A stretch of 64,000 bases of DNA from an uncultured Candidatus Saccharibacteria bacterium (GTDB taxonomy: Bacteria > Patescibacteriota > Minisyncoccia > Phycocordibacterales > CAYSCM01), in contig CAYSCM010000001.1 of NCBI GenBank assembly GCA_964429815.1, positions 224,001-288,000 on the forward strand. The letters run 5' to 3'. A program made the position numbers and the translations under genes. Each line of letters starts with the position of its first letter. Within the stretch, counting starts at the first letter, position 1. The notes below the pieces were generated by a model, which worked only from the letters and a program-made list of their open reading frames with translations, did no database searches and was not told the DNA's origin. Of this stretch, positions 45,353 to 64,000 are shown piece by piece.

Positions 45353-45373
45353 GCCCACACGCGCGAACCTATT

Positions 45374-45926: not shown

Positions 45927-45943
45927 CAGATTTTCACCCTTCC

Positions 45944-45982: not shown

Positions 45983-46112
45983 TTTGCATATTTTTAGAGG
46001 TTCCTGTAGTGTGTCCCCATTCGCTACGTTCTCTAGGGAATACCCGGTGGGAACCAATGGCAAGAAGGCTCTAAGAGCCCGGCGCCATTGTTGGCGTTTT
46101 TTTGTTTCAACC

Positions 46113-46748: not shown

Positions 46749-46753
46749 ACACT

Positions 46754-47416
46754 ATGGCTGAAGTAACTATCTACAATCAGAAGGGTGAATCGGCGGGGAA
46801 GGTAAAACTTCCGGGCTTCTTCGAGACGAAGTGGAAGGCGGATGTCGTCCACCAGGTGGTCGTCGCGGAAGCGGCAAACGCTCGTGTGTCTATCGCCAAC
46901 ACCAAGGATAGAAGCGATGTGCGCGGTGGCGGCCGCAAGCCGTGGCAGCAGAAGGGTACCGGCCGAGCTCGTCACGGATCTTCTCGCTCGCCGATCTGGC
47001 GCGGAGGCGGTTCCACCTTTGGTCCGCAGAAAGAAAAGGACTACTCGCAAAAAATCAATAAGTCGATGCGCCGCAGGGCTCTCGCTATGGCACTCTCCCG
47101 CAAGGCCGCCGATGGGGAAGTGATCTTTGTCGATAAGCTCGTCTTTGCAAAGCCTTCAGCTAAAGAGGCTAAGGCAACACTCCTCGCGCTCGGCAAAAAC
47201 AAGGACTTCTCCTCGCTCAAGGATCGCCGCAACAACGCCGCTCTCATCGCGCTTTCCGAAAATGATAAAGAAGCTAAGAAGAGTTTCCGCAATTTCGGCA
47301 ATGTACTGATCGAGGAGGCACGCAACATCACCGCATCCGAGATCCTCGGCAAGAAGTACCTCATCATCGAAAATCCAACCGCGACCCTTCCGCGCTGGGA
47401 AAAAATTCTTAACTAA
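46754..47416 (+). CDS. rplD: 50S ribosomal protein L4
   Basis: 220 aa; RGGGRKPWQQKGTGRARHGS signature. Confidence 0.9.
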   Translation: MAEVTIYNQKGESAGKVKLPGFFETKWKADVVHQVVVAEAANARVSIANTKDRSDVRGGGRKPWQQKGTGRARHGSSRSPIWRGGGSTFGPQKEKDYSQKINKSMRRRALAMALSRKAADGEVIFVDKLVFAKPSAKEAKATLLALGKNKDFSSLKDRRNNAALIALSENDKEAKKSFRNFGNVLIEEARNITASEILGKKYLIIENPTATLPRWEKILN

Positions 47417-47421
47417 CCACC

Positions 47422-47838
47422 ATGGCTCTCTTCAATTTTGGAAAAAAGAAAAAGGACGCTCCGAATCTTCCTAAGAAGGCGACCCAGGCCGTGGCCGCAC
47501 CGGCGAAAGACGTAAAGATTCCGAAGGCAGCAAAAGTCTCGGGGGAGGGAGCGGGACGCTACGCGCACGTGCTTCTTCGCCCGCGCATCACGGAAAAAGC
47601 GACCGATGTCACCTCAAATAGCGTCTACGTTTTTGAAATCGATCCGCGAAGCGACAAGCGTGCCGTGCGTGAGGCGGTCAAAACCCAGTACAAGGTAAAT
47701 CCGGTGAAGATTAACATCGTGAAGCTTCCCGCTAAGCGTGTCGAGTCAAAACTTCGCGGCGGATTTCCGGGCGCGACTGCCGCGACGAAGAAGGCCTACG
47801 TCTACCTTCCTAAAGGAACCACTATTGAACTTGCATAA
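47422..47838 (+). CDS. rplW: 50S ribosomal protein L23 with ~45-aa K/A-rich N-terminal extension
   Basis: Core VLLRPRITEKAT...YVFEIDPRS...VNIV. Confidence 0.85.
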   Translation: MALFNFGKKKKDAPNLPKKATQAVAAPAKDVKIPKAAKVSGEGAGRYAHVLLRPRITEKATDVTSNSVYVFEIDPRSDKRAVREAVKTQYKVNPVKINIVKLPAKRVESKLRGGFPGATAATKKAYVYLPKGTTIELA

Positions 47839-47843
47839 CTATC

Positions 47844-48686
47844 ATGAAAAGCCATAACCCCACTTCAAAAGGCCGCCGTCAGCTTGTCTCGATCGAGTAC
47901 GGCAAATACCTCACCGCAAACGAGCCGTGGAAAGGACTCGTCTCGGGCGGCAAGCGCCGCGTCGGGCGCAACGCGTTCGGCCGTATCACGACTCGCCACA
48001 AGGGCGGCGGCCACAAGCGCCTCTTCCGCGATGTCGACTTCATGCTCACCAAGTTCGATATCCCGGCGCGCGTCGAGACTATTGAATACGACCCGAACCG
48101 CACGGCCTTTATCGCCCGCATCGTCTATCGCGATGGCGAGCGCCGCTACGTGCTCGCGAGCAAATCCATGCGTGTGGGCAATGAACTCCTCATTTCGGAG
48201 AAAGCCCCGGTGAAGCTTGGCAACCGCATGCCGCTTCGCAACATGCCGGTCGGCACTTTTGTCTACAATGTCGAGATTCAGCCGAAGGGGGGCGCCAAAC
48301 TCATCCGCTCGGCAGGGAACACTGCGGAAATCGTCGCGCAAGATGGTGACTACACAAACCTCAAGATGCCTAGTACCGAAGTGCGTCGCGTGCTCTCGGG
48401 GGCGTGGGCGACGATCGGTGAAGTATCCAACGATGAGAACAAGCTCCGCTCACTCGGAAAGGCCGGACGCTCCCGCTGGCTCGGCATTCGCCCGACCGTG
48501 CGCGGCTCCGTCATGAACCCGGTTGATCACCCACACGGCGGCGGCGAGGGTCGCCAGGGACGTGGTCGCCGACGCGCCATCTCCATCTACGGCAAACCGA
48601 CCGGCAAGGGCCAGAAGAGCCGCCGACCGAAGAAGTACAGCAACGGCATGATTCTCTCCCGACGTCGTGTCGGAAAAAACCGCTAA
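47844..48686 (+). CDS. rplB: 50S ribosomal protein L2
   Basis: 280 aa; GRNAFGRITTRHKGGGHKR, VMNPVDHPHGGGEG motifs. Confidence 0.95.
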   Translation: MKSHNPTSKGRRQLVSIEYGKYLTANEPWKGLVSGGKRRVGRNAFGRITTRHKGGGHKRLFRDVDFMLTKFDIPARVETIEYDPNRTAFIARIVYRDGERRYVLASKSMRVGNELLISEKAPVKLGNRMPLRNMPVGTFVYNVEIQPKGGAKLIRSAGNTAEIVAQDGDYTNLKMPSTEVRRVLSGAWATIGEVSNDENKLRSLGKAGRSRWLGIRPTVRGSVMNPVDHPHGGGEGRQGRGRRRAISIYGKPTGKGQKSRRPKKYSNGMILSRRRVGKNR

Positions 48687-48697
48687 AACTGATGAAA

Positions 48698-48723
48698 AAC
48701 GCCGCGACTTCCGTCGCGGCGTT
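48698..48723. terminator. bidirectional terminator hairpin AACGCCGCGACTTCCGTCGCGGCGTT between rplB and a convergent minus-strand gene
   Basis: 10-bp GC stem. Confidence 0.55.
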
Positions 48724-48728
48724 CGTGT

Positions 48729-49391
48729 TCACCAGTACGCAAAGGGATCGCGCCAGTCTGGGTAGTTATCATGGAGCCATCGGTATATTGGAGGATGCAG
48801 TTGCGGAAGTCTAGCTGCACGGCGTTTACTGTCTCTCGCCGCGTCTTCCTCAAGAAGGCGTGTATCTTCATCGGTTATTCCGTCGAACTTTCTTTCCTTC
48901 CGTTTTTCGACGTGCACAATGCCAATAAACTCGGCTGGTTTCTCTGGCTCAACAAAGGTACGGTCGATTACCACGTCGATGATATAGCCTCTTGGCCGTT
49001 CGATGGGAGCGGTGTGAATGTTGGGCGGATTCAAAGCGTAGCGACAATAGACTTGAGCGCTCTCTAAACCAAGTCGATCGTCGCTGAATTCCCGGTGTAT
49101 ATGTACCCGGAGATTCCCTTTCCTATCGAGAACATGAAGAATTCCAGAATCAGGCCTTCCGTAGGCATCGTATCCTTCGACCGCTCTCCAACCGGATGGG
49201 AGCACTACATCGAATCTCACATAATTTGGTGGCGGATTAGCCAACTCGTTAAAGAGTTGTCCATTGAGATCAAATGCTCTCAGCACCTGGAAACCTCCTC
49301 GTTGGAGCGTTTCGCGCATTCCCTTCAGTCCCTGCCAAGGGAATTCTGCATTTTCAAGAGTAAACCAGGGGAGTACTACGGTACCAGACAT
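48729..49391 (-). CDS. hypothetical protein (220 aa) inserted between rplB and rpsS
   Basis: Minus-strand AAGGAG RBS; no recognisable family. Confidence 0.5.
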   Translation of the reverse strand: MSGTVVLPWFTLENAEFPWQGLKGMRETLQRGGFQVLRAFDLNGQLFNELANPPPNYVRFDVVLPSGWRAVEGYDAYGRPDSGILHVLDRKGNLRVHIHREFSDDRLGLESAQVYCRYALNPPNIHTAPIERPRGYIIDVVIDRTFVEPEKPAEFIGIVHVEKRKERKFDGITDEDTRLLEEDAARDSKRRAARLPQLHPPIYRWLHDNYPDWRDPFAYW

Positions 49392-49467
49392 GTAATCTCC
49401 TTTTGTTTGTGGATCAGTCCTGAGGTGACATTAAATTTAAACAGCGCTTTTTGCAATAAAAGAAATT

Positions 49468-49493
49468 CACCCCGCACTTCTTTGTGCGGGGTG
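49468..49493 (-). terminator. minus-strand terminator hairpin CACCCCGCACTTCTTTGTGCGGGGTG
   Basis: 10-bp stem; T-rich on minus strand. Confidence 0.55.
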
Positions 49494-49499
49494 AGTTCG

Positions 49500-49913
49500 T
49501 CATCCGGTCTCGGACGGCACGCTGTTTTCGAGCTGTGAGCCGACCAGAACGAACGAATTAACGAAGATGATGAGAATACCCGCGAGAATGCTAAGAAACC
49601 ACAGCGGGCTCGAGAGGAGTATAATGAAGAGCGTGTAGAGTAGGGTCGCCGTGACGGAAAGCGATGAAAGCCAGGCACTTTCCTCGTCCCAATCCCACTC
49701 CCACTTCACGAAGCTTTCAGCGACCAGATACAGGACGAGGGCCGGCCCGCCAAAGAAAAAGAGGAAAAATCTCGCCCCATCGATCGCCTGAGTCATCATG
49801 GCGTCGAGGGTCATCAGCACGTGCGCCATCGTCCACGGTTTCGTCATAGGTTCTCCCTTCACGGTCTCTTGCGGAACTGTAGATCTTCTTGGGATTTTTG
49901 CAAGAATTTGCAA
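49500..49913 (-). CDS. hypothetical membrane protein (about 3 TM; possible start at 49847)
   Basis: Hydrophobic segments FFLFFFGGPALVLYLV, LLYTLFIILLSSPLWFLSILAGILIIFV. Confidence 0.45.
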   Translation of the reverse strand: MQILAKIPRRSTVPQETVKGEPMTKPWTMAHVLMTLDAMMTQAIDGARFFLFFFGGPALVLYLVAESFVKWEWDWDEESAWLSSLSVTATLLYTLFIILLSSPLWFLSILAGILIIFVNSFVLVGSQLENSVPSETG

Positions 49914-49975
49914 GAATATGAGGGATCCGAAAGAAAAACGCCGCGATCTGATGCATCGCGGCGGGGACCAAAAAT

Positions 49976-50226
49976 TCAGGCAGCGTCCTTTTCGCCGGGG
50001 AATAGAGGGTCGCTAAGCCTGTACTTAGTGATTCCGTCGCGGCGGTAGAGCGTGCCGGGTGCGTAGCCATGGCCTCGCTTCAGGCAGTAGGCCGCGACGT
50101 AGGCCCTCGCTTCCCCTTCGCTCTCGGCCGAAAAGTACTCGAGTTTTTTCTCTGCACTTCGAGCTCCCGAGACGGGATTTCGGAAAAATTTTACGTAGTT
50201 GAACTCGAACTCCTGTCGGGGCATGG
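49976..50226 (-). CDS. hypothetical small protein (83 aa from MPRQEFEF)
   Basis: AAGGAG RBS 6 nt before ATG 50226; the longer ORF-track version is Arg/Gly-rich upstream. Confidence 0.4.
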
Positions 50227-50289
50227 AAGGCTCCTTCAGTTGCGCTCCGGCCACTCTAGACCCGTTCTGTCTCCCTCGCAAGCCTCCGT

Positions 50290-50318
50290 TTGACAGTGCG
50301 GGCTCGCGCGAGTAGTAT
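50290..50318 (+). promoter_or_regulatory. promoter TTGACA-17-TAGTAT restarting transcription at rpsS
   Basis: Hexamer match 40 nt upstream of the rpsS ATG. Confidence 0.5.
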
Positions 50319-50358
50319 GTTGCCACAAGCTCTTCAGCGAGCTTTTTTGATTGAAATT

Positions 50359-50706
50359 ATGAGCCGATCGCTCAAAAAGGGACCCTACGTCGACGAGAAA
50401 CTCCTCAAGAAAATCGAGGGGAAGAAGCCCCAGTCAACCGGGGTTATTAAAACGTGGGCTCGCCGCTCCGTCATCGCTCCTACCATGGTCGGCTTCATCT
50501 TTGGCGTCTACAACGGCAAGCAGCACATCGACGTGCTGGTGACCGAGGAAATGGTAGGGCATCGCCTGGGGGAGTTCTCGCCGACCAAGAAGTTCACCCG
50601 CCATGGCGGCAAGATGCAGAAGGAGCTTGAAATTAAGAAGAAGGAGGCTGAAATTGCCGCCGCGCAGGCCGCAAAGACCGCTGCCGCGGATGCTGGCAAG
50701 AAATAA
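50359..50706 (+). CDS. rpsS: 30S ribosomal protein S19 with A/K-rich C-terminal extension
   Basis: [18 protein letters not shown]...TWARRSVI core; tail [23 protein letters not shown]. Confidence 0.9.
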
Positions 50707-50707
50707 T

Positions 50708-51076
50708 ATGAAAGCCTCTCTCAAAAACTATCGACAGGCTCCGCGAAAGGTGCGCCTCGTGACCGACATGGTGAAAGGGAAGAAAGTTCCTGAAGCTCTC
50801 GTTGCGCTCACCCATCTCCCCAAGCGTGCCGCGCTTCCCATGAAAAAACTCATCGAGTCGGCAAGCAGGAATGCCGAGAATCTCGGCATGAAGCGCGAAA
50901 ATCTTTTCATCAAAGATATTCGAGTCGACAAAGGGATCGTCTTCAAGCGCATCATGCCGCGCGCGCGTGGCCGCGGAGCCCTCATCCGTCGTGAGTCGAG
51001 CCACATTTCTCTTTCTCTTGCTGAAGGTAACCCGCCGAAGAAGGGTCGCAACGCCCCTAAAGCGGTCGCCGCATAA
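50708..51076 (+). CDS. rplV: 50S ribosomal protein L22
   Basis: 122 aa; RQAPRKVRLVTDMVKGK...ARGRGALIRRESSHISL. Confidence 0.9.
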   Translation: MKASLKNYRQAPRKVRLVTDMVKGKKVPEALVALTHLPKRAALPMKKLIESASRNAENLGMKRENLFIKDIRVDKGIVFKRIMPRARGRGALIRRESSHISLSLAEGNPPKKGRNAPKAVAA

Positions 51077-51081
51077 ACACC

Positions 51082-51771
51082 ATGACGCACACCGTACATC
51101 CCTACGCACACCGACTTGGAATACTGCGCGACTGGAAAAGCCGTTGGATAACTTCTGATCCCAAGCGCTTCCGGGAATTTGTGAAATGTGATACGACTAT
51201 TCGCGAGTTCCTCACCAAGCGCTTGCGCGGCCTCTATGTCGCCGGCGTCGACATTGAGCGCAACAATAAAGTGCTTCGCGTCATCATAAAGACTTCCCGC
51301 CCCGGCATGCTCATTGGTCGCTCCGGAGAGGGGGCTGTTAAGCTCAAGGCCGAACTGGAAAAGCTCATCGCCAAGCTCGGGCTCTCCGATCCGGTGCAGC
51401 TCAAGCTCGATATCGAAGAGGTTCGCAATCCGGAAGGCAACGCCGCCATCGTAGCCTACATGGTCGCCGAGGGTCTCGAGAAACGCCTCACGTTCCGGCG
51501 CGTTCTTAAGATGACGGTCGAAAAGGTGATGGCAAACCGCGATGTCATCGGGGTGCGCATCGCCATCGCGGGGCGACTCGGCGGGGCCGACATGAGCCGT
51601 GCGGAGGAGATCAAGCGTGGTCGCATTCCGCTCCAGACACTGCGTGCCGACATTGATTTTGCCCGTGAGAAGGCGTACCTTCCCTACGGCGTTATAGGCG
51701 TCAAAGTCTGGATCTATAAGGGCGAAGTATTCGCCGACCGCAAGGGTAGTGCGCCGAAAACCGCTAAATAA
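51082..51771 (+). CDS. rpsC: 30S ribosomal protein S3
   Basis: 229 aa; KH domain and S3-C domain motifs (GIDIERNNKVLRVII, GRLGGADMSRAEE). Confidence 0.9.
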   Translation: MTHTVHPYAHRLGILRDWKSRWITSDPKRFREFVKCDTTIREFLTKRLRGLYVAGVDIERNNKVLRVIIKTSRPGMLIGRSGEGAVKLKAELEKLIAKLGLSDPVQLKLDIEEVRNPEGNAAIVAYMVAEGLEKRLTFRRVLKMTVEKVMANRDVIGVRIAIAGRLGGADMSRAEEIKRGRIPLQTLRADIDFAREKAYLPYGVIGVKVWIYKGEVFADRKGSAPKTAK

Positions 51772-51776
51772 TCACC

Positions 51777-52196
51777 ATGCTCTTTCCGAAAAAAGTAAAG
51801 CATCGCAAGTGGCAGACCGGACGCTGGAACCCCAAGCGCCTTACCCCCGACACGCGCGGCATTACCGTGGCGTTCGGTTCTTTTGGCCTTCGCGCGATGA
51901 CGCATGCTCGTGTCACGAGCAACCAGATCGAGGCCGGTCGCAAAGCGATATCGCGCCAACTGGGGAAGACCGGCAAGAGCTGGATACGAATTTTCCCCGA
52001 TCGACCGTTTACCAAGAAGCCGCCGGAAGTGAAGCTCGGGAAGGGAAAGGGCGACCCGCAGGGGTACGTCTTTGAGGTGCTCCCCGGGCGCATTCTCTTT
52101 GAGATAGACGGTGTTCCCGAGAGCGTGGCTCACGTAGCCCTGCGCAAGGCAGGCGCCAAACTTCCGGTGCGCACGAAGGTCGTTGCCCGAACATAA
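51777..52196 (+). CDS. rplP: 50S ribosomal protein L16
   Basis: 139 aa; MLFPKKVKHRKWQTGR signature. Confidence 0.9.
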   Translation: MLFPKKVKHRKWQTGRWNPKRLTPDTRGITVAFGSFGLRAMTHARVTSNQIEAGRKAISRQLGKTGKSWIRIFPDRPFTKKPPEVKLGKGKGDPQGYVFEVLPGRILFEIDGVPESVAHVALRKAGAKLPVRTKVVART

Positions 52197-52198
52197 TC

Positions 52199-52387
52199 AT
52201 GGCTACAAACGATTTCAAACATACACCAGAGACGGAACTTCGGAATCTCGCCAACGACAAGCGGGAAGCTCTTCGCGCGTTCCGCTTCGGGGTTGCCGGC
52301 AGCAAGACCCGCAACATCCGCGAGGGGCGCAACCTCAAGCGCGACATTGCCCGCATCGAAACCGAGCTTAACGCTCGAAAGAAATAA
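52199..52387 (+). CDS. rpmC: 50S ribosomal protein L29
   Basis: 62 aa; ELRNLANDKREALRAFRF. Confidence 0.85.
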   Translation: MATNDFKHTPETELRNLANDKREALRAFRFGVAGSKTRNIREGRNLKRDIARIETELNARKK

Positions 52388-52388
52388 T

Positions 52389-52667
52389 ATGATTGCGAAA
52401 ACCACCACAGCATTCAAACGGAAGTTCCAGGGCGTCGTCGTCTCGGACAAAATGCAGCAGACCGCGGTCGTACTCGTCTCGCGCTACGTGAAGCATCCGA
52501 AATACAAGAAGTATCAGCGCCTCACGAAGCGCTACAAGGCGCACAACCCGGAGAACAAGGCAAAGACCGGCGACTCCGTCGTTATTGAGGAGTGCCGTCC
52601 AATAAGCAAGGATAAGCACTTTCAGATATTGTCCATAACGCCCGCCAATTCCGGGGCAGAAGCCTAA
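52389..52667 (+). CDS. rpsQ: 30S ribosomal protein S17
   Basis: 92 aa; FQGVVVSDKMQQTAVVLVSRYVKHPKYKKY. Confidence 0.9.
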   Translation: MIAKTTTAFKRKFQGVVVSDKMQQTAVVLVSRYVKHPKYKKYQRLTKRYKAHNPENKAKTGDSVVIEECRPISKDKHFQILSITPANSGAEA

Positions 52668-52671
52668 TATC

Positions 52672-53043
52672 ATGATCCAGCCCCAGACACTCGTCACCGT
52701 TGCAGACAATTCCGGCGCCAAAATTGCCCGTGTGTTCAAGATTCTTGGAAGCTCCAAGAAGCGCTACGCCGAAATAGGAGACCTCGTTGTCCTCTCGGTC
52801 CAGGTCGCCGAGCCGCGCAAGATGATGAAGAAAAAGGAGGTCGCGACCGCCGTCATCGTGCGCCAGAGGAAGCCTTTTAGGCGCAAGGACGGTTCCTACG
52901 TGCGCTTCGATGAGAACGCGGTCGTCATCATCGATAAAGCAAAAATGGAGCCGAAGGCCGGGCGCGTGTTCGGCCCTATTCCGCGCGAGCTAGGGGAGCG
53001 CGGTTTCCAGAAAATCGTCTCGCTTGCCCCCGAGGTCGTGTAA
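52672..53043 (+). CDS. rplN: 50S ribosomal protein L14
   Basis: 123 aa; MIQPQTLVTVADNSGAK signature. Confidence 0.95.
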   Translation: MIQPQTLVTVADNSGAKIARVFKILGSSKKRYAEIGDLVVLSVQVAEPRKMMKKKEVATAVIVRQRKPFRRKDGSYVRFDENAVVIIDKAKMEPKAGRVFGPIPRELGERGFQKIVSLAPEVV

Positions 53044-53049
53044 TTCATC

Positions 53050-53352
53050 ATGAAAATCCACAAAGGCGATAGCGTCATAGTGATTTCCGGCAAGGACCGC
53101 GGCAAAACGGGCAAAGTTCTCCGCGCACTCCCATCCGAACACAAGGTCGTGGTCGAAGGCGTTAACTTGCTCAAGAAGCACCAGCGCCCCACGCAAAACA
53201 ACCAGAAGGGCCAAATCGTCGAGAAAACGATGCCCATCCATGTAAGTAACGTGATGCTCGTCGATGGGAAGGGTAAGCGCACGCGCGCCAGCTTCCGTCA
53301 CGTGGGAGAAAAGAAGCAGCGCTTTGCCAAAACGACGGGAAGTGAAATCTAA
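53050..53352 (+). CDS. rplX: 50S ribosomal protein L24
   Basis: 100 aa; KOW motif KIHKGDSVIVISGKDRGKTGKV. Confidence 0.9.
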   Translation: MKIHKGDSVIVISGKDRGKTGKVLRALPSEHKVVVEGVNLLKKHQRPTQNNQKGQIVEKTMPIHVSNVMLVDGKGKRTRASFRHVGEKKQRFAKTTGSEI

Positions 53353-53356
53353 TACC

Positions 53357-53878
53357 ATGCTCGAACTCATCAAAAAACAAAACGATGCGCACAAGGCGCT
53401 CTCCTACAAAAACGTAATGCAGACACCAAAGATCGAGAAGGTCATCGTCTCGATCGGCGTTGGCTCTGTGAAGGACAAGAAAAAATTTGACGTCATAACA
53501 GACCGCCTCGCGAAGATCACGGGCCAAAAGGCCGCTCCGCGCGCCGCCAAGAAATCGATTGCAACCTTTAAGCTGCGCCAGGGGGACGTCGTCGGGTTCC
53601 AAATCACGCTCCGAGGCTCGCGCATGAAGAATTTTCTCGAACGCCTTCTCGCGGTGGCGCTTCCACGTACCCGCGACTTCCGTGGGCTTGATCCTAAGGC
53701 TATCGACGAGATGGGTAACCTCACCATCGGCATTAAGGAGCACACTATTTTCCCTGAAACCTCTGACGAGGATCTCAAGGACGTCTTTGGATTTGCCGTG
53801 ACGGTGGTTACTACCGCCAAAAGTCGCGACGAGGCACTGAAGTATCTCACCTACCTCGGATTTCCTTTCAAGAAATAA
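53357..53878 (+). CDS. rplE: 50S ribosomal protein L5
   Basis: 173 aa from MLELIKKQNDAH; FDGRGNLTIGIKE-like L5 core. Confidence 0.9.
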   Translation: MLELIKKQNDAHKALSYKNVMQTPKIEKVIVSIGVGSVKDKKKFDVITDRLAKITGQKAAPRAAKKSIATFKLRQGDVVGFQITLRGSRMKNFLERLLAVALPRTRDFRGLDPKAIDEMGNLTIGIKEHTIFPETSDEDLKDVFGFAVTVVTTAKSRDEALKYLTYLGFPFKK

Positions 53879-53949
53879 AAAGCCCTAGCTTTCAGAGCAA
53901 TTTGTATTTTTTGGGCTTCAGCTTAGGTCGAGCTTTCGGACCGGAGCAG

Positions 53950-53979
53950 TTGACAATCTCCACTATTATATAGTATAAT
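53950..53979 (+). promoter_or_regulatory. promoter TTGACA-18-TATAAT driving the DGR target gene
   Basis: Exact hexamers; followed by RBS AAGGAGG 6 nt before ATG 54118. Confidence 0.6.
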
Positions 53980-54117
53980 TCTTTCCATAACACTAGTTCC
54001 TTGATTTGGTTTTGCCCTGGCAGGAAGAGCTTTCGTTGAGAGAATTTCCTGCTGTGGCAAAGCCCGTTCGGGCCGAGTCTGAACAGCACTGTAAAAACGC
54101 TCAAAGGAGGTAATCTC

Positions 54118-54759
54118 ATGAGCGAACAACAGATCGCCAAGCTCGCCGGCGCATTGGTGGAGCACCAACGGCATTTCGGTGCCATGCCAACCGAGGATCG
54201 CCAGTGGGCGATCCAGAATACTGAAGCGGCCATCGGTCTATTCGCCGTTGCAGTGAAGAACCGCGACAACGGCCAGACACAGAAACCAAGGACGCTCTTG
54301 AAGTTCGTGGCGAGCGTAAGCATCGCCGCGATCGAAGGCTTCAAAGTCTCCGAGAACTTCGAGGAGGGGAAGTTGGGCCCGGTCAGAATCTATTGGCTCG
54401 GCGACGACTTCAAGAAGCACTTCGGCCGCAAGACCGAGAGCGCTTTGGAAGCAGTCGAGCTGAAGGTTCACACTCTGACCAAGGCTTCGCTCGATGCCCC
54501 GATCATCGCGGAACTCGCGGGCAATGCGGAGATCACGATGGGCCAGTTCTTCGCTCTGCTATCGAAGCAGGGCAAGGGCGAGAGCGGGCCGCTCCTTACG
54601 AACGGCTACGCCAACATCGCCTACATCCGCGACGACGAGGGCGTCCTATGGGCGGTGGACGCCCACTGGCACGCCGGCCGCGGGGGCTGGGACGTCTACG
54701 CCGACTCAGTCGCCTACCCGGGCGAGTGGGACCGGGGTCGCCAGGTTCTTTCCCGCTGA
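54118..54759 (+). CDS. DGR target (variable) protein, 213 aa, C-terminal variable region; no signal peptide detected
   Basis: The last ~33 codons (VR 54658-54756) are the adenine-mutagenised copy of TR; TR N codons (AAC) correspond to D/H/H/G/R/D/Y/D/A/Y/G/D/R in VR. Confidence 0.8.
   Translation: MSEQQIAKLAGALVEHQRHFGAMPTEDRQWAIQNTEAAIGLFAVAVKNRDNGQTQKPRTLLKFVASVSIAAIEGFKVSENFEEGKLGPVRIYWLGDDFKKHFGRKTESALEAVELKVHTLTKASLDAPIIAELAGNAEITMGQFFALLSKQGKGESGPLLTNGYANIAYIRDDEGVLWAVDAHWHAGRGGWDVYADSVAYPGEWDRGRQVLSR
54658..54756 (+). repeat. DGR variable region (VR)
   Basis: ~100-bp alignment to TR with 16 mismatches, every one an A in TR (A->G/C/T in VR), and no non-A differences; homology ends just after the stop codon. 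Confidence 0.85.
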
Positions 54760-55096
54760 TTCTCGAACCCTTAAGCCCTCGGCCTGAGATCCTTTGACCC
54801 TCTGAAACTTTGCGAAGCAATTTGCGAAGGAGTAGGAGGGTCTTCTATTTTTTATTTTGATATAGTAAGACGTGAGGAGTGCTACTGATGCGGCGGCTAC
54901 GGCTTCCGCACAGCGCCTCGAGTATCTGTATCGCCAGAATCACGTCGGCTAAGGCTTGCGCGAGAGCGCGTGCAGGTACTCTTAAAAAAGATAAAGAATC
55001 GGTGCCTCATGCTGGCGGACTTCAAGGTCCCACATACGATACAGCTCGGAGAGTATTCGATGGGTGGTGTTATTGATGGCTTAAGGCACACAACGG

Positions 55097-55206
55097 ATGG
55101 GCGGTGAACGCCAACTGGAACGCCGACAACGGGGGCTGGAACGTCAACGCCAACTCAGTCGACAACCCGAACGAGTGGAACCGGGGTAACCAGGTTCTTT
55201 CCCGCT
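55097..55206 (+). repeat. DGR template repeat (TR); AAC-rich (11 AAC codons in VR frame); followed by hairpin CCCCGCCCTTCGGCGGGG + TTTT
   Basis: See VR; ORF-track entry 55104-55391 is the TR read in the VR frame, not a gene. Confidence 0.85.
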
Positions 55207-55570
55207 ATTCTTTTCTTCCCCCGCCCTTCGGCGGGGTTTTGCTTTCGAGGCCCCTCTTCCATCCCCCAACCATCCGACCCAGTTCGTGCACTTTTTCCGA
55301 GAGAGCAGCATACCTCTTTGTGTCAAGCGCGCGCAGCTCCCATGCGACTCGTAAAAGGAATTTCGCGGTGTCTATTTTTTTGAGTGTGTGAAAAAGTGTC
55401 GGCACTTTTTCACCCGAGCCCTGATAACTTGCGGTGAAGAGAAGTTCCAGCGTGTCTATGAGCGAAAAGTCGATGCGCTCACCGAGTGTATACCGGGCGT
55501 TTTTTGGAAAGTTGTTCCTGCACTCATGCCAGATTTTATATACTGCAACAGCATGTTCAATAACCGGCAA
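55205..55570 (-). CDS. avd: Avd-like accessory protein (four-helix-bundle / 23S rRNA-IVS protein family)
   Basis: 121 aa; HAVAVYKIWHECRNNFPKNARYTLGERIDFSLIDTLELLFTASY resembles IVS/Avd four-helix-bundle proteins; on the strand opposite TR and RT; stop codon abuts the TR 3' end. Confidence 0.65.
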   Translation of the reverse strand: MPVIEHAVAVYKIWHECRNNFPKNARYTLGERIDFSLIDTLELLFTASYQGSGEKVPTLFHTLKKIDTAKFLLRVAWELRALDTKRYAALSEKVHELGRMVGGWKRGLESKTPPKGGGRKE

Positions 55571-55590
55571 AAGTCGTTGGGGGGGTCGCT

Positions 55591-56592
55591 TTGAGGTCGC
55601 AACTCGCTCATACGTATGACGATATCATCTCGCTAGAAAATCTCCTTGCCGCATGGCAGGAATTCGTGCGCGGGAAGCGCAAAAAATGCGACGTGCAAGA
55701 GTTTCAGTTTCGGCTCGTGGACAATATTCTTGAGCTCTACCGTGACTTGAAAGAGAAAACATACACGCATGGGCCGTACCACCCTTTTAAAATAAGCGAC
55801 CCTAAACCCCGCGACATCCACAAGGCGAGCGTACGCGACCGGCTCCTCCACCACGCAATATATCGGAAACTCTATCCATTCTTCGACAAAATTTTCATTG
55901 CCGATTCGTACTCATGCAGGAAAGGCAAAGGAACACACAAGGCGATGAACCGTTTTCGTTCCTTTGCATACAAGGCGAGCTTAAATCACACAAAAACGCT
56001 TTGGGTGCTCAAGTGCGACATCAAAAAGTTCTTTGCATCAGTCGATCAGCATGTTCTCCTGGAGATTATTAGGCGCTGCATTTCTGACACCGACATCCTC
56101 TGGCTCATCGAGCGAGTCGTGCAGAGTTTCAATCCCAGCAGGGAGGGCACGGGTCTCCCGCTCGGCAATCTCACCTCGCAGCTTTTAGTGAATGTGTATA
56201 TGAACGAGTTTGACCAGTTTGTGAAGCGCACCCTCAAAGCGAAATACTACATCCGTTACGCCGATGATTTTGTGATTTTCTCGCAAGATGCGAAATGGCT
56301 CCAACAAATATGCAAATATATCAGCATATTCTTACGTGAACGGCTGAAACTCGAATTGCACCCTAATAAAGTATCGATCACAACGCTCGCATCCGGTATC
56401 GATTTTCTCGGCTGGGTGAATTTTCCTGATCATCGCGTGCTACGCACCTCGACAAAGCGGCGGATGTTGAAGCGAATGACTGGTGAGCAATCTAAAGAGA
56501 TCATCAAACCGTATTTAGGGCTTCTTCAACATGGGAACAGCAAAAAGCTGCAATTGAAAATCTTGTTTGACACAGCAGAGGCAATCAAGTAA
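55591..56592 (+). CDS. DGR-type reverse transcriptase (TTG start)
   Basis: 333 aa; motifs [45 protein letters not shown] (SQ in place of group-II QG), RYADDFVIF; no maturase/X domain; G-rich RBS. Confidence 0.85.
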
Positions 56593-56734
56593 GCTCATCC
56601 CACAAAGCCGAGTAGGGCTTTTCTTTTGGCAAGTGCTAAACCGTCTACGCGGTCGCATACTCCCAGAAGAAAGGGAAGAATACTTCTCTTTTTTCACTCC
56701 ACACGTGGGGGATTGCCAGAAGTTCGTATACCAC

Positions 56735-56920
56735 ATGGCAAAAACCTCAGTCATCGTTCGAAGCAAACGAAAGCCCAAGTTTAAGTCTCGGGTTGTTCGT
56801 CGCTGTTTCAAGTGCGGACGCAAGCGCAGCTACATGCGCGACTTTGACCTGTGCCGCATCTGCTTCCGCGAACTCGCGAACGAAGGCATGATCCCGGGCA
56901 TTAAGAAAAGCTCCTGGTAA
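56735..56920 (+). CDS. rpsN: 30S ribosomal protein S14, zinc-binding type Z
   Basis: 61 aa; [25 protein letters not shown] (C4 zinc ribbon). Confidence 0.85.
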
Positions 56921-56925
56921 TTTCC

Positions 56926-57309
56926 ATGTTGATCACTGACCCAGTCGGAGATTTCATAGTGCGCCTCAAGAACGCGACCGACGCGGGACGCTCGTCGACG
57001 ACGGCGCCCTACAGCAAGCTGAGAGCCGCTATCGCGGAGAGTCTCAAGGGCCGCGGCTTCATCAAGAGCTACGACAAACGCGGCAAGAAGGCGAAAAAGG
57101 TCATCGAAATCGAACTCATCCCTGAGAAGATCCAAGGCGTCGCGCGCGTCAGCAAGCCGGGCCGCCGCCTCTACATTCGCGTCAACGAGATCAAGGCCGT
57201 CCGTTCCGGACAAGGAGCACTCGTGCTTTCGACCCCGAAGGGAATTCTCACCGATCGCGAAGCCCGCAAAGAAAACGTCGGCGGCGAAGCGCTCTTCAAA
57301 ATCTGGTAA
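56926..57309 (+). CDS. rpsH: 30S ribosomal protein S8
   Basis: 127 aa; DPVGDFIVRLKNA signature. Confidence 0.9.
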   Translation: MLITDPVGDFIVRLKNATDAGRSSTTAPYSKLRAAIAESLKGRGFIKSYDKRGKKAKKVIEIELIPEKIQGVARVSKPGRRLYIRVNEIKAVRSGQGALVLSTPKGILTDREARKENVGGEALFKIW

Positions 57310-57313
57310 TTCT

Positions 57314-57850
57314 ATGAGCCGCGTCGGAAAACAAATCATCATGGTCCCCGAAAAAACCGAGCTCACCCTCACGGGAGACCTTGTGTCTGTGAAGGGGCCG
57401 CTTGGAGAGCTCTCCCGGGCACTCGATAGCCGCATCAAGGTGGAAGTAAACGGCAACGAAGTAAAAGTTCTTCCCGCAGTCGCCGGTAAAGAGGGAGACG
57501 TCCTCTCGGGAACCTACGTCGCTCATATCAAGAATATGGTCGAGGGCGTCAACAAGCCCTTTGTTAAAAAACTCATCATCGAGGGTATCGGCTACAAGGC
57601 CGACGCGCAGGGCGATACCATCACTTTCGGCCTCGGTTTCTCGCACCCGATCAAGGTGAAGATTCCGACGGGTCTCAAGGTTACGACCGAAAAAGGTGTC
57701 ATCACGATTTCGGGAAGCAACGTCGAGCAGGTCGGGCAGTTCGCCGCGGACCTGCGGGATCTTAAGCGCCCAGAGCCGTACAAGGGGAAGGGTATCCGCT
57801 ACGAGGGCGAGGTCATTCACCGCAAGGAAGGTAAGAAGAACGTCGCATAA
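57314..57850 (+). CDS. rplF: 50S ribosomal protein L6
   Basis: 178 aa; MSRVGKQII...KPEPYKGKGIRYEGE. Confidence 0.9.
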   Translation: MSRVGKQIIMVPEKTELTLTGDLVSVKGPLGELSRALDSRIKVEVNGNEVKVLPAVAGKEGDVLSGTYVAHIKNMVEGVNKPFVKKLIIEGIGYKADAQGDTITFGLGFSHPIKVKIPTGLKVTTEKGVITISGSNVEQVGQFAADLRDLKRPEPYKGKGIRYEGEVIHRKEGKKNVA

Positions 57851-57855
57851 CCGCT

Positions 57856-58197
57856 ATGGCTTCCCTCAAAGAACAAAAACGAGAACGCCGCCACAAAAAG
57901 ATCCGCACGCGTGTCGCGGGTACCGAGTCGCGCCCACGCCTAGCTGTCTTCCGCTCCAATAAGTTCCTCTACGCGCAGCTCATTGACGATGAGAAGGGCG
58001 TTACCATAGCAGCCGCAAAAACCTCTGAGGCAAACAAGCCGATGCACGAACGAGCCGCTGCTGCGGGGGAGGAAATCGCCAAGAAGGCCCTGGCAAAAAA
58101 AATCGAGAAGGTAGTGTTCGATCGGGGCGGTTTCAAGTATGCTGGCGCGATCAAGGCATTCGCGGACGCGGCAAGGAAGGGAGGGCTTCATTTTTAG
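57856..58197 (+). CDS. rplR: 50S ribosomal protein L18
   Basis: 113 aa; RPRLAVFRSNKFLYAQLIDD...FDRGGFKY. Confidence 0.9.
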   Translation: MASLKEQKRERRHKKIRTRVAGTESRPRLAVFRSNKFLYAQLIDDEKGVTIAAAKTSEANKPMHERAAAAGEEIAKKALAKKIEKVVFDRGGFKYAGAIKAFADAARKGGLHF

Positions 58198-58203
58198 ACG
58201 ACC

Positions 58204-58803
58204 ATGACTGAGGAAACAAAAACAACGGGAGAAAATGTCGCAGTCGTGCAGGCGGCGGCTCCGGCTTCTGTTCCAGGAGGACCGCAGCGCCCCGACATGC
58301 GCGAACGACGCGCCCCACGCGGACGCGGACGCGGTGAAGGCCGCCGCGGGCAGCGCCCGGAGCGTGCTCGAAGCGAATTCGACCAGAAGATAGTCACCAT
58401 TCGGCGCGTGACTCGCGTTATGGCAGGAGGGCGCCGTTTCAATTTCTCCGTCGCGCTCGTCGCGGGGGACCGCAAAGGGCGCGTGGGTGTGGGGCTGGGT
58501 AAAGGTGCCGATACGTCGCTTGCGATCGATAAGGCACTTCGCGCGGCGAAGAAACACATGATACGCGTGCCGCTCACTCCGGAAGGACGCATTCCACATG
58601 AGGTCTCCGCAAAATTTGCAGCGTCCCGCATCATCATGAAGCCAGCTCCGGGGAAGGGCTTGGTCGCAGGAAGCTCCGCTCGCACTGTGCTTGAGCTTGC
58701 TGGTGTCAAAGATATTTCCGCCAAGCTCCTCTCAGGAAGCAAAAATCGCATCAACAACGCCCAGGTTGCGCTTGAGGCGCTTAAAACGCTCAAAGCCCGC
58801 TAA
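58204..58803 (+). CDS. rpsE: 30S ribosomal protein S5 with ~50-aa Arg/Gly-rich N-terminal extension
   Basis: Core KIVTIRRVTRVMAGGRRFNFSVALVAGD...GVKDISAKLLSGSKN. Confidence 0.9.
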   Translation: MTEETKTTGENVAVVQAAAPASVPGGPQRPDMRERRAPRGRGRGEGRRGQRPERARSEFDQKIVTIRRVTRVMAGGRRFNFSVALVAGDRKGRVGVGLGKGADTSLAIDKALRAAKKHMIRVPLTPEGRIPHEVSAKFAASRIIMKPAPGKGLVAGSSARTVLELAGVKDISAKLLSGSKNRINNAQVALEALKTLKAR

Positions 58804-60567: not shown

Positions 60568-61167
60568 ATGGGGCCGAAAACGTTCATTTTCACGGGCCGC
60601 TCCGGCTGCGGCAAGGGGACTCAAGCATCGCTTCTTATTGATGATTATGCCCACGAAGGCCAGCCAAGCTACCGCATCGAATCAGGGGCGATGTTCCGCT
60701 CGTTTATAAGCGAGCATGGCTATACGAATGCCCTTGCCGCCGATATCCTCAATTCCGGCAAGCTTCAACCCGAGTTTCTTTCTATCTGGGTGTGGAGCAA
60801 CCTCCTTATACGTGACTTCCAAGACCCCTCCCCGCATCTCGTGCTCGACGGTATGCCGCGACGGATTCACGAAGCGCCGGTACTTGATGGGGCCCTCGAT
60901 TTCTACGATCGGGCAGAACGATTCGTGATCTATCTCAATGTGTCGAGGAAGTGGTCCGAAGACCGACTCCGCGCTAGGAAGAGGGATGACGATGTGGAGC
61001 AGTACATACAGAATCGCCTTGATTGGTTTGAAAGCGAGGTGATGAAGGTAATCGAGTTTTTCAAGAAGAATACGAAGTACACGTTTCTTGATATCAATGG
61101 CGAGCAGCCCATTGAGAAGGTTCGGGTTGATATCGCCGCTGCCATCAATGCACATTCGAAACACTAA
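60568..61167 (+). CDS. adk: adenylate kinase (divergent, short)
   Basis: 199 aa from MGPKTFIFTGRSGCGKGTQ (P-loop GxxGxGKGTQ); the long ORF-track frame 59752-61167 upstream of this Met overlaps secY and is not coding. Confidence 0.75.
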   Translation: MGPKTFIFTGRSGCGKGTQASLLIDDYAHEGQPSYRIESGAMFRSFISEHGYTNALAADILNSGKLQPEFLSIWVWSNLLIRDFQDPSPHLVLDGMPRRIHEAPVLDGALDFYDRAERFVIYLNVSRKWSEDRLRARKRDDDVEQYIQNRLDWFESEVMKVIEFFKKNTKYTFLDINGEQPIEKVRVDIAAAINAHSKH

Positions 61168-61918
61168 CGATATAGAAATTCTTCGCGAGGGAGGTCGCCG
61201 TTTGGCGGTGGTTTTGCGCCAGGTCGCTGCGGCCGTGAGGCCGGGAGTTTCCTCCGACGAGCTCAACAAGCTGGCGCAGAAACTCATCGAGGAGGGTGGC
61301 GACAGGCCGGCGTTTCTCGGCTACACGCCGGAAGGTGCTCCGCGCCCTTACCCCGCGGCGCTCTGCGTTTCCATCAACGACGAAGTCGTGCACGGTATTC
61401 CCAATGAGATACCGACCGTTCTGCGGGAGGGCGACATCGTCGCCCTCGACCTCGGGCTCATCCATAAAGGGCTCATTGTCGACGCGGCGGTTTCAGTTCC
61501 TGTCGGAAAGGTAGACGCAGAAGCACAAAGACTCATCACCACAACTAAAAAGGCTCTCGAGAAAGGCATCGCCGCTGCCCGTGGAGAGGCGAAGGTGGGC
61601 GACATCGGCGCGGCGATCCAGGCATTCGTCAAGCCGCACGGCTACGGCATCCCCCTTGAGCTCGGAGGCCACGGCGTTGGGATCAAGGTCCACGAGAAGC
61701 CCTACATTCCGAACGTTGGAAGGAAGGGGACGGGAGAGAGACTTACTGTCGGCATGGTCATTGCCATCGAACCCATGCTGAACGAAGGAAGGGCGGATGT
61801 GCGTATGGACAGCGATGATTACACCATACGGACCGCCGACGGCTCACGAAGCGCCCACTTCGAGCACACGATCTTGATAACTGAAGGCGCACCGGAAATT
61901 TTGACGAAAGAAAACTAA
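61148..61918 (+). CDS. map: methionine aminopeptidase type I
   Basis: 256 aa from MHIRNTNDIEILRE; overlaps the adk end by 20 nt; metal-binding D/D/H/E/E context. Confidence 0.9.
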   Translation: MHIRNTNDIEILREGGRRLAVVLRQVAAAVRPGVSSDELNKLAQKLIEEGGDRPAFLGYTPEGAPRPYPAALCVSINDEVVHGIPNEIPTVLREGDIVALDLGLIHKGLIVDAAVSVPVGKVDAEAQRLITTTKKALEKGIAAARGEAKVGDIGAAIQAFVKPHGYGIPLELGGHGVGIKVHEKPYIPNVGRKGTGERLTVGMVIAIEPMLNEGRADVRMDSDDYTIRTADGSRSAHFEHTILITEGAPEILTKEN

Positions 61919-61936
61919 ACAAGAGAGAATTAAAAA

Positions 61937-61967
61937 CGCGGGACCCTAAGGGTCCCGCGCCGGTTTT
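61937..61967 (+). terminator. rho-independent terminator after map (CGCGGGACCCTAAGGGTCCCGCG + TTTTT)
   Basis: 10-bp stem plus T-run; the spc/alpha-operon continuation (infA, rpmJ, rpsM, rpsK, rpsD, rpoA, rplQ) is absent downstream. Confidence 0.65.
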
Positions 61968-62225
61968 TCCGGAAGCATACCGAGAAAGTCGCTGGCGAGA
62001 CGGGACGCTCTACCTCGTCGCTGCGGCGCCTTGGCGCGCGCTCGCTCGATTTCCTGCTCGAGCGCGCGCTGCCCTTCGAGCTTTTTCCGCCTTCTTTCTT
62101 TTCGTCGCTCCCACAGCGAGTGGATAGTGGTGCGCATGAAACCCTCCAAAAAACGTTTCAGCGACTATACCGCAGGTGTGCATCTGTGCAAAGTCGCCGA
62201 TACGAGCGGGGTATACTAAGGTGCA

Positions 62226-64000
62226 TGGAAAAGATGGCTGCTGTCGAGGGAGTATTTCAAACCCCCGAGGAAGAAATAGCGCATTTACGTGAGCAGCTCA
62301 CACGGCACGAGATAGCCGCGATCGTCGGAACCTCCGGGCCGCCCGAGCCGCTCCAGCAGGTAATTCGCGCCTACGCGCAAAAGCCTCCTCACGAGGTCAT
62401 ACCCGGCCCCTCCATGCTTCCCGAAGGGCGTGCAGGCGAGATCGCCCTCGAGCTAAAACCCGAGTCGCATGACGAGAAGATGGCGGAGCTTCTTGGTATT
62501 CTCCAGGAACACGGAATAAAAAACGCTCTCACGGTCGCGGAGAAACTCGGTCCCCACGTTGAAGACGATTTCCACCGTTTTTTGGTCGAGTATCTACGCG
62601 AGGGGTTTTCCGTAAAAGGGTTCCACGAAGGAGGGGCGCTCTGGCGGCCGCTCCATATGAGGCTCTATGAGGTGCGCATATCACAGAAAGAAGAGGAGGC
62701 CGGCAAGGACCTCAAGAAAGCCCTCTCAGGAATGGAACAGCTCTACGCCGCACTCCTCGCCTCCTCCGGCAAGCGTGAGTTTCGCAAAGATTTCTTTACG
62801 CTCGAGATCGCGGTCGGAAATTCCTCGGAGGATATCGTCTTCTATGTTTCCGTGCTCGAGAGCAAAGCCGACCTCCTTCAAAAGCAGACACTCGCGCTCT
62901 TTCCGGGCGCGCGGATCGAGCTCCTGCGCGATGATTATAATATTTTTAACGAAAAAGGCGCCTCACTTGCTTCCTATGGCTCTCTTGCCCGGTCGCCGGT
63001 CTATCCGCTTCGGACCTATGATGAGTTCGACCACGATCCGCTAAGTGGCATCATTGCGGCGTTCTCCCGGATGCGCAAGGAGGGCGAGGGGGCCGCGTTC
63101 CAGCTCTCCGTCTCGCCCGTCGGAGACGAGTTCAATGCACGGTTTAAAAAGGCGGCAGTAGACCTCGAGAAGGGAGTCCCCGCGCCGAAGGCGACCAGGG
63201 TCGCCCTCTCCACGGGAGAGAAAATTGTCTCCGGCATCAGCAAACTCATCGGGGGAGAGGGCAAAAAGAGCGATACCCAGAAGCCGGTCGACTCCGTTGC
63301 GCTCGAGGAGGTAAAGAAAAAAATAGGCAGCCCCATAGTTCTCGCCGGCATTCGTCTCGTCGTTTCGGCCGAAAACGAAATGCGCGCGAGCGCCATCCTC
63401 TCCGACCTTGAAGCATCGTTTGGTCAATTCAGTGCGGCCCAGGGCAACGCGCTTTCGTTCAAACGGGTCCCTCGGAAAGCCCTCACGGCATTTCTTTCCG
63501 ACTTCTCCTTTCGCTCATTCGATGAGGGGAAGGGCATGCCCCTTAGCCTGCGTGAACTCACCAGCCTCTACCACCTCTCCGGTGCAGCGCTTGTCCCCAG
63601 CCGCGAGGTGAAGCAGACGCGCTTCAAAACGGCTCCGGCGCCGCTTGAGCTTGTCGAGGAAGGGATACGCCTCGGCAGCAACCGTCATGGAGGCGAGGAG
63701 CGTCCCGTGCGGTTTGCCGATACCGATCGACTCCGCCACCTCTACGTCATAGGGCAAACGGGCACCGGCAAGTCTGTGTTCCTCAAGAACATGGTCATCC
63801 AAGATATCGCACGAGGGGCCGGGGTGTGCTACATCGATCCGCATGGCTCGGATATCGAGGAAGTGCTCGGCGCGGTGCCGCCGGAGCGCGAGGGAGACGT
63901 CATCTACTTCAATCCGGCCGATCCTGAGCGCCCCTTGGGCCTCAATATGCTCGAGTACGATGCGCGCTTCCCCGAGCAGAAAACGTTCGTAGTCAACGAG
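62226..64000 (+). CDS. P-loop NTPase, HerA/VirB4/TraG-like (DUF87-type), 5' portion only (runs off window end)
   Basis: Continuous frame of >590 codons from ATG 62226 to position 64000, not in the ORF track (no stop inside window); Walker A HLYVIGQTGTGKSVFL followed by IDPHGS, typical of HerA/VirB4-type ATPases. Confidence 0.55.

Follow-up and report, generated by a model that had tools for sequence, protein, structure and literature searches.

A soluble ATPase with a VirB4-like build and a coupling-protein-like motor, encoded behind the ribosomal protein cluster of Patescibacteria

The 64,000-nucleotide stretch analyzed here (the window; positions 224,001 to 288,000 of contig CAYSCM010000001.1, from an uncultured Candidatus Saccharibacteria bacterium) ends within the gene of a large ATPase. 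The gene follows map, the last gene of the S10-spc-secY-adk-map cluster. The ATPase combines a VirB4-like build with a motor that resembles the one of type IV coupling proteins (T4CPs), without the membrane anchor that is the hallmark of canonical T4CPs. It is encoded at the same chromosomal position in many Patescibacteria and is therefore an old core gene, not an inserted conjugative or defense element. The initial annotation of the window had taken the ATPase as the mark of a conjugation, type IV secretion system (T4SS)-like or defense system. This is contradicted by the conserved synteny, by the native composition of the gene and by the lack of partner genes among the neighbors that were scanned. 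The features on which the analysis is centered are the following.

61148-61918, plus strand: map, type I methionine aminopeptidase (TIGR00500, E 2.5e-78; Peptidase_M24, E 3e-43)
62225-64000, plus strand: ATPase gene, first 592 of 906 codons (from translation, the identical full-length protein P0001 and contigs L001 and L002)
62225-62614, plus strand: N-terminal helical extension, residues 1-130 (AlphaFold secondary structure, conservation and shorter relatives)
62642-63574, plus strand: DUF8128 alpha/beta core, residues ~140-450 (predicted fold of the VirB4 N-terminal domain)
63665-64000, plus strand: start of the RecA-like ATPase domain, residues 481-592 of 481-906 (Walker A and IDPHGS)
Beyond the window: all-alpha insert, residues ~584-697; TraG-D_C region, residues 758-817; Walker B YLYIDEF, residues 759-765

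The open reading frame (ORF) of the ATPase starts at ATG 62225, with a Shine–Dalgarno-like AAGGTG motif just 5′ of it, and stays open for 592 codons up to base 64000. The initial annotation had also described a frame open to the window end, but placed its start at 62226. The gene extends 945 nt past the end of the window. Contigs L001 and L002 match the final 3 kb of the window without a single difference (3000 bases compared; the gene call at 2269-3039 of L001 corresponds to map at 61148-61918). Both carry the complete and uninterrupted gene of 906 codons, from which it follows that the ORF is intact. P0001, a protein of 906 residues present in public assemblies, is 100% identical over the part encoded in the window. 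The GC content of the gene (0.586) and its GC content at third codon positions (GC3, 0.69) agree with the values of map and of further native genes. At its 3′ end, the TGA stop codon overlaps the ATG of ndk in this genome (ATGA), which is consistent with translational coupling.

The Walker A motif GQTGTGKS (nt 63752-63775) is part of the segment HLYVIGQTGTGKS (residues 505-517, nt 63737-63775), and IDPHGS is found at residues 537-542 (nt 63833-63850). Both motifs had been recognized initially, with a distance from the N-terminus estimated at about 470 residues; the P-loop in fact lies about 505 residues in. In 37 relatives, the Walker A motif (G510-K516), the Walker B residues D764 and E765 and many further motor residues are invariant. 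The mean column identity in this set amounts to 61% overall and to 0.8-0.93 over the ATPase domain. Judged by this conservation, the motor appears to be under very strong purifying selection and the ATPase to be catalytically intact.

The motor falls into the VirB4/VirD4 branch of the FtsK-HerA superfamily. An earlier assignment to the HerA/VirB4/TraG (DUF87) ATPases was thus right at the level of the superfamily, although the DUF87 match is restricted to the P-loop and it is the coupling-protein profiles that match across the C-terminal domain. In the ATPase itself, TraG-D_C scores above its cutoff (25.5 vs. 22 bits), and TrwB_AAD_bind (19.8 vs. 20.5 bits) and T4SS-DNA_transf (19.5 vs. 20.1 bits) both remain just under theirs. 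Family-wide, at E ≤ 0.001, these three profiles match 36, 30 and 20 of the 37 members, respectively. The VirB4-specific profile CagE_TrbE_VirB matches none of them, AAA_10 a single one (18.7 vs. 27.5 bits, P-loop only) and FtsK three. Similarly, the top NCBIfam match is SXT_TraD (E 4e-9); VirB4_plasma, TraC-F-type and traC_PFL_4706 reach E-values of 0.012-0.3, far under their cutoffs and over the P-loop only. TrwB is the only PDB sequence matched by the family profile. Moreover, the nucleotide-binding domain contains an all-alpha insert, as is found in coupling proteins. Altogether, the sequence of the motor favors the coupling proteins, whereas structure does not discriminate between VirB4 and VirD4. 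An assignment to FtsK was not obtained, since FtsK_SpoIIIE stays below its cutoff (18.8 vs. 24 bits) and a membrane domain was not found with it; the structural scores of FtsK are far lower than those of VirB4 and TrwB. The N-terminal HAS-barrel with a NurA or effector partner that would point to HerA was not found either. Judging from its homologs, the ATPase probably forms a ring.

The N-terminal half of the protein, of about 480 residues, corresponds to the Pfam family DUF8128 (PF26449). This assignment comes from the precomputed annotation of P0001 and of all 120 listed relatives, as PF26449 was not returned by local Pfam scans. For this domain, neither Pfam (E ≤ 10, 31 members) nor a profile run against the PDB sequences yielded matches above chance level. 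Because it has no sequence relative in Pfam or PDB, its link with VirB4 is a structural one only. With Foldseek, the full-length predicted model aligns to TrwK, the VirB4 of R388, over ~900 columns (E 1.5e-14). In the structure search with the N-terminal model, EccE3 follows as the next match, with 9.8, and the list contains no P-loop ATPase, so that the match must be to the N-terminal domain of VirB4. The predicted model thereby shows the VirB4-type build of two domains, with a VirB4-type domain at the N-terminus and a RecA-like domain at the C-terminus.

The core of DUF8128 is preceded by a helical extension. DUF8128 relatives of about 800 residues do not have these first ~130 residues; their match begins at query residue 135-150, and their motor is equally T4CP-like. 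The extension itself carries two invariant motifs, P79-E80-x-H82-D83 and H111..D114-D115-F116-x-R118 (residues 79-118, window 62459-62578). Their richness in His and Asp is suggestive of metal or ligand binding. Hydropathy, the only test applied for an N-terminal transmembrane anchor, revealed no hydrophobic window of 19 residues in the first 700 residues. The sole window of this kind, at residues 728-746, forms a helix buried in the core of the ATPase. In 113 of 118 homologs, the hydropathy pattern is the same. The ATPase is therefore predicted to be soluble, without a membrane segment.

The family is widespread. A word-indexed search yielded 1040 relatives, of which the 120 best were inspected. 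These are mostly 905-960 residues long and, where named, they come from Patescibacteria, with several of the labels ('Saccharibacteria') having been given to the organisms by the depositors of the records. When one genome per species was scanned, at least 591 species-representative Patescibacteria genomes were found to encode a relative. The 480-residue DUF8128 domain as a query retrieved 943 representative clusters (50% identity) at E ≤ 0.001.

Gene order was compared in 80 related loci, with ORFs defined by a simple longest-ORF heuristic. The recurring order is secY-adk-map-ATPase-ndk-RNase J-LOG-(rplT-rpmI-infC). Of the 63 loci whose flank is long enough, 41 have map upstream, in 21 cases directly next to the ATPase gene; ndk follows downstream in 51 of 66 loci, 33 of them with the two genes adjacent. 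In the remaining loci, the sequence around the ATPase gene reads as rsmH-ftsL-ftsI with uvrB and uvrA, or as pyruvate kinase with ribonucleotide reductase. In a neighbor-joining protein tree, these non-syntenic copies group into small clades that branch from within the syntenic copies, as would be expected if a single orthologue had been rearranged secondarily. The DUF8128 ATPases of the tree are thus consistent with one orthologous group, and map-DUF8128 ATPase-ndk appears to be the ancestral gene order in this lineage. Inherited vertically, the ATPase gene is an ancient part of the core genome in a large lineage of Patescibacteria (Parcubacteria/Paceibacteria-type genomes). Its position had also been counted as evidence for an insertion hot spot; the conserved order and the nesting of the non-syntenic copies speak against this. 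Insertions do occur nearby, as illustrated by ORFs at the junction in relatives and by a reverse-transcriptase ORF in the window, but the ATPase gene is not one of them. Two contigs of one metagenome-assembled genome (CALRBL01, 'Nomurabacteria' MsH-01oct19-81), L022 and L056, each contain a full-length DUF8128 ATPase; there are therefore two copies in some genomes or bins, or the bin is mixed.

The neighbors of the gene were surveyed over up to 62 kb upstream and, on L001, 7.8 kb downstream, with some ORFs of the window having no family match or being left unscanned. Among the identified neighbors, there is no VirB3, VirB6, VirB8, relaxase or defense partner, and a VirB4, an integrase or a repeat boundary was not identified among the scanned ones. 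An association of the ATPase gene with a T4SS or relaxase, such as would be expected for a T4CP or a VirB4, was found neither in this neighborhood nor in the related loci. The neighbors that could be identified are housekeeping genes. On L001, the ATPase gene is followed by ndk, an RNase J-like metallo-beta-lactamase and a LOG-family protein, and subsequently by rplT-rpmI-infC on the opposite strand, a glyoxalase and smpB. The larger scanned ORFs of the window encode the CCA-adding enzyme, ClpP, NusA, PilB, PilC, triosephosphate isomerase (TIM), phosphoglycerate kinase (PGK), RecJ, ComEC, fusA, tuf and the S10-spc genes.

VirB4 and VirD4-type ATPases assemble into rings of six subunits at the cytoplasmic side of T4SSs. 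The N-terminal domain of VirB4 binds VirB3 and VirB8, thereby tethering the soluble ATPase to the membrane complex, and the all-alpha domain and C-terminal region of T4CPs engage the substrates. By analogy with these proteins, it is proposed with moderate confidence that the ATPase is a coupling-type motor, recruited via its VirB4-like N-terminal domain to a T4SS of Patescibacteria or to a VirB3/VirB8/TrsD-like receptor. The T4SS would be chromosomal, relaxase-less, non-conjugative and encoded elsewhere in the genome, and the ATPase would serve as its second, coupling-type motor. As a cytoplasmic ring motor without an anchor of its own, it would dock on the T4SS through the VirB4-like domain, and ATP hydrolysis would feed a substrate, either protein or nucleic acid, into the channel. 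While the sequence, the domain assignments, the predicted folds, the synteny and the native composition are results of the analysis, the oligomeric state, the docking partner, the substrate and the T4SS link are presumed ones.

According to Quinonero-Coronel et al. (2025; PMC12102498), Patescibacteria have a T4SS that is chromosomal and MPF-FATA-like and that usually lacks a relaxase. Of the 5,713 VirD4-type T4CP homologs counted in 2,918 genomes of Patescibacteria, no more than 148 are near virB4; exaptation of t4cp is raised there and left open by the authors. In Southlakia epibionticum, a member of the Saccharibacteria, the T4SS is essential and its cluster has no recognizable coupling protein (PMC10633639; also PMC12857230). 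A more tentative extension of the proposal is that the DUF8128 ATPases may form a third, so far undescribed lineage of the VirB4/VirD4 family, in which a VirB4-type docking domain is joined to a coupling-type motor. This core gene beside the translation-gene cluster would then encode the 'missing' coupling ATPase of an essential relaxase-less T4SS, or a relic near the split of VirB4 and VirD4.

Some elements weigh against the proposed role as a T4SS motor. Firstly, no T4SS component was identified in the surveyed neighborhood (62 kb on the upstream side, 7.8 kb on the downstream side), or beside the gene in related loci, so that the link with a T4SS is drawn from domain homology only. Secondly, the similarity of the N-terminal domain to VirB4 stems from a predicted model only, with a mean predicted local distance difference test score (pLDDT) of 76.7, and is without sequence support. 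Thirdly, the t4cp homolog of S. epibionticum is reported to be non-essential and the T4SS genes to be essential (PMC12102498). This argues for a separable or exapted function, with the reservation that the homolog may or may not be a DUF8128 protein.

The main alternative, which seems somewhat unlikely, is a housekeeping motor that is derived from VirB4/VirD4 but independent of any T4SS, and that has been exapted to move or remodel cytoplasmic DNA, RNA or protein. A T4SS-independent role would explain the linkage to secY-adk-map and ndk-RNase J rather than to secretion genes. It also fits with the strict housekeeping synteny and the overlap with the start of ndk, with the very strong purifying selection that seems to act on the motor, with the absence of a membrane anchor and with the alternative contexts of the gene (rsmH-ftsL-ftsI/uvrB/uvrA and pyruvate kinase/ribonucleotide reductase), as these consist of housekeeping genes too. 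The remark on exaptation and the non-essential t4cp of S. epibionticum point in the same direction (PMC12102498). However, the closest relatives of both halves, in structure or in sequence, are T4SS ATPases. Furthermore, many functionally unrelated genes keep their order around ribosomal clusters. In ordinary systems, the T4CP is often encoded far from virB4 as well (PMC12102498), and distance alone therefore proves little.

It is quite improbable that the ATPase substitutes for FtsK/SpoIIIE or HerA, as a DNA translocase for segregation, for repair or for uptake together with the type IV pilus, ComEC and RecJ. PilB, PilC, RecJ and ComEC are indeed encoded at 20.9-34.6 kb of the window, but these competence genes are at least 28 kb away and are not syntenic with the ATPase gene. 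In addition to weak matches to FtsK_SpoIIIE, there are weak ones to CedD and CedB, the archaeal DNA-import ATPases; the former stay under the cutoff given above and occur in 3 of the 37 members only. The FtsK structural scores, far under those of VirB4 and TrwB, and the lack of a NurA-type partner among the neighbors seen argue against this role too.

The view of the initial annotation, in which the end of the ribosomal cluster received a conjugative or integrative element or a T4SS island, retains very little probability. The matches to coupling-protein profiles, the variable large ORFs at the map-ATPase junction in some relatives and the reverse-transcriptase insertion elsewhere in the cluster would agree with it, but a position conserved in dozens of species-level genomes contradicts it. 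The composition of the gene is native, the protein tree is compatible with a single group of orthologues, and the scanned neighbors showed no relaxase, integrase, VirB4, VirB6 or repeat boundary. A component of anti-phage defense (MADS mad8-like, DndH/SspH-like or of the HerA-effector type) is scarcely credible and was rejected, given that the PADLOC matches, of which mad8 is the best supported (E 2e-17, residues 482-805; HerA, DndH and SspH weakly), are confined to the shared ATPase domain, that no mad1-7, dndFG, sspFG, Sir2, nuclease or DUF4297 effector is adjacent on L001 or in related loci, and that defense genes are typically patchy and mobile, whereas the ATPase gene is a syntenic core gene.

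When compared to known systems, the ATPase resembles the T4CPs (TrwB of R388, VirD4, TraD, TraG, DotL and Cag-beta) in its RecA-like domain, its Walker A and B motifs, its all-alpha insert and its TraG-D_C region, and in the family-wide matches to TraG-D_C, TrwB_AAD_bind and T4SS-DNA_transf, with TrwB as the sole PDB sequence match. Unlike T4CPs, it has no N-terminal transmembrane anchor and it contains a soluble domain of ~480 residues that is absent from them. In addition, its gene is unlinked to relaxase and T4SS genes, and is part of the chromosomal core instead of belonging to a plasmid or an integrative and conjugative element. With VirB4 (TrwK of R388 and the VirB4 of Thermoanaerobacter pseudethanolicus), it has in common a soluble build of two domains and 800-900 residues, along with the full-length alignment of its model to TrwK described above. 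In contrast to VirB4, it matches no VirB4 sequence profile beyond the P-loop, it is not encoded with VirB3, VirB6 and VirB8, and it has the additional helical N-terminal extension of ~130 residues.

The translocases HerA and FtsK and their relatives in defense (the C-domain of DndH/DptH and mad8 of MADS) differ from the ATPase in several respects: its N-terminal model matched no HerA structure, no NurA or effector partner was seen, there is no FtsK membrane segment, the FtsK profile does not reach its cutoff and the context is one of housekeeping genes. The orphan VirD4-type T4CPs of Patescibacteria have several features in common with it (Quinonero-Coronel et al., 2025; PMC12102498). They come from the same phylum, are located away from virB4 and are possibly exapted, and they share the annotation given in the source databases (TraM recognition domain, T4SS DNA-binding domain, VirD4). 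In the consulted parts of that paper, a DUF8128 or VirB4-like N-terminal domain, a missing anchor and a fixed position between map and ndk are not described; the 5,713 homologs may or may not include DUF8128 proteins.

Part of this is already known: the family is present in databases (as Pfam DUF8128, or annotated as TraM-recognition, VirD4 or DUF87), and the orphan T4CPs have been counted in print. In the literature library that was searched, no paper mentions DUF8128. No prior description was found of the VirB4-like fold of this family, of its missing membrane anchor or of its constant location between ndk and the spc cluster.

Patescibacteria depend on host cells. In the one species that can be manipulated genetically, the T4SS is essential and its cluster is devoid of a recognizable coupling protein or relaxase, which raises the question of how substrates are selected and energized. 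A nearly universal and highly conserved soluble ATPase in which a predicted VirB4-like docking domain is combined with a coupling-type motor is an obvious candidate for the missing coupling role. It would bear on the divergence of VirB4 and VirD4 as well. For annotation, the lesson is that a 'TraG/VirD4/DUF87' match beside the ribosomal cluster does not indicate a mobile element or defense island in these genomes.

Between map and the ATPase gene, some relatives have gaps of up to 6.9 kb. The nine that were examined hold large or small lineage-specific ORFs. At this junction, several related genomes have large ORFs of 424-2117 residues that belong to small lineage-specific families; a number of these ORFs are rich in Glu and Lys. 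Their positions are given here by locus.

L019, 4986-8639: large junction ORF
L021, 5203-9210: large junction ORF
L053, 5882-9835: large junction ORF
L057, 3512-9865: large junction ORF
L082, 6728-9934: large junction ORF
L047, 7366-9978: large junction ORF

One of the families is located upstream of the ATPase gene in L010, L012, L019 and L021, and downstream of it in L004. Clustering of the flanking ORFs gave only small lineage-specific families and no universal partner gene beside the ATPase. The large junction ORFs could be substrates, partners or junk insertions.

In the window itself, the junction consists of a spacer with the following features.

61919-62224, no strand: map-ATPase intergenic spacer of 306 nt, in which no gene is called on L001
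61937-61969, both strands: intrinsic-terminator-like hairpin with T-runs (terminator scan of both strands, RNA fold)
61946-62137, minus strand: Arg-rich ORF of 63 residues, from ATG 62137 to a stop at 61946 that lies inside the hairpin

The TAA stop codon of map (61916-61918) closes the ribosomal protein cluster, in agreement with the earlier proposal that the operon ends at this gene. That a strong terminator follows map is borne out as well, at least for the structure. The stem-loop (61937-61959) begins 18 bases past the end of map and comprises a perfect G+C-rich stem of 10 bp, CGCGGGACCC/GGGTCCCGCG, and a loop of 3 nt, with an A-run in front and the T-run CCGGTTTTTC behind. In its 61-nt context, it has a folding energy of −27.9 kcal/mol (z = −4.84; none of 200 shuffles equally stable). 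As judged by its sequence, it presumably terminates transcription. The scan found it on both strands, hence its shape is bidirectional, and the T-run is better on the minus strand. No Rfam family came near its threshold in the spacer, the best being L20_leader with 22 bits vs. a cutoff of 58.7. The minus-strand ORF has no Pfam match and, in NCBIfam, only a sub-threshold one to GspM (14.7 vs. 60 bits); having no family and being uncalled on the identical contigs, it is probably spurious as a gene.

The genes infA, rpmJ, rpsM, rpsK, rpsD, rpoA and rplQ do not follow map, as had been noted. With E. coli query sequences, tblastn found none of them in the window or in the 80 related loci, and these alpha-operon genes are also lacking in the 7.8 kb downstream on L001. 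The controls rplN, rpsH, rplB, rpsE, tufA and fusA found their own genes at 39971-58797. The idea that the alpha operon would reside in the map-ATPase gaps of relatives was rejected, as the nine gaps hold the lineage-specific ORFs mentioned above and tblastn was empty there.

Elsewhere in the window, the following features were recorded.

54118-54759 and 55104-55391, plus strand: unassigned ORFs inside the spc cluster
55591-56592, plus strand: reverse-transcriptase ORF (RVT_1, E 4e-26)
20881-22632 and 22639-23853, plus strand: type IV pilus genes, PilB and PilC
30320-32023 and 33053-34558, plus strand: DNA-uptake genes, RecJ and ComEC
1445-2977, minus strand: CCA-adding enzyme gene, adjoining tRNA genes
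2979-3050, 3254-3324, 4166-4238 and 5493-5563, plus strand: four tRNA genes
4276-5415, minus strand: trypsin-like protease gene, adjoining tRNA genes

The reverse-transcriptase ORF and the two unassigned ORFs (together 54118-56592) are situated between rplE (53264-53878) and rpsH (56926-57303). They look like a genuine retroelement insertion (a diversity-generating retroelement, a retron or a group II-like element) that is unrelated to the ATPase gene. Two large ORFs, at 25224-26600 and 26680-27891, have no Pfam match. The genes of TIM and PGK are located between the pilus and DNA-uptake genes of 20881-34558.

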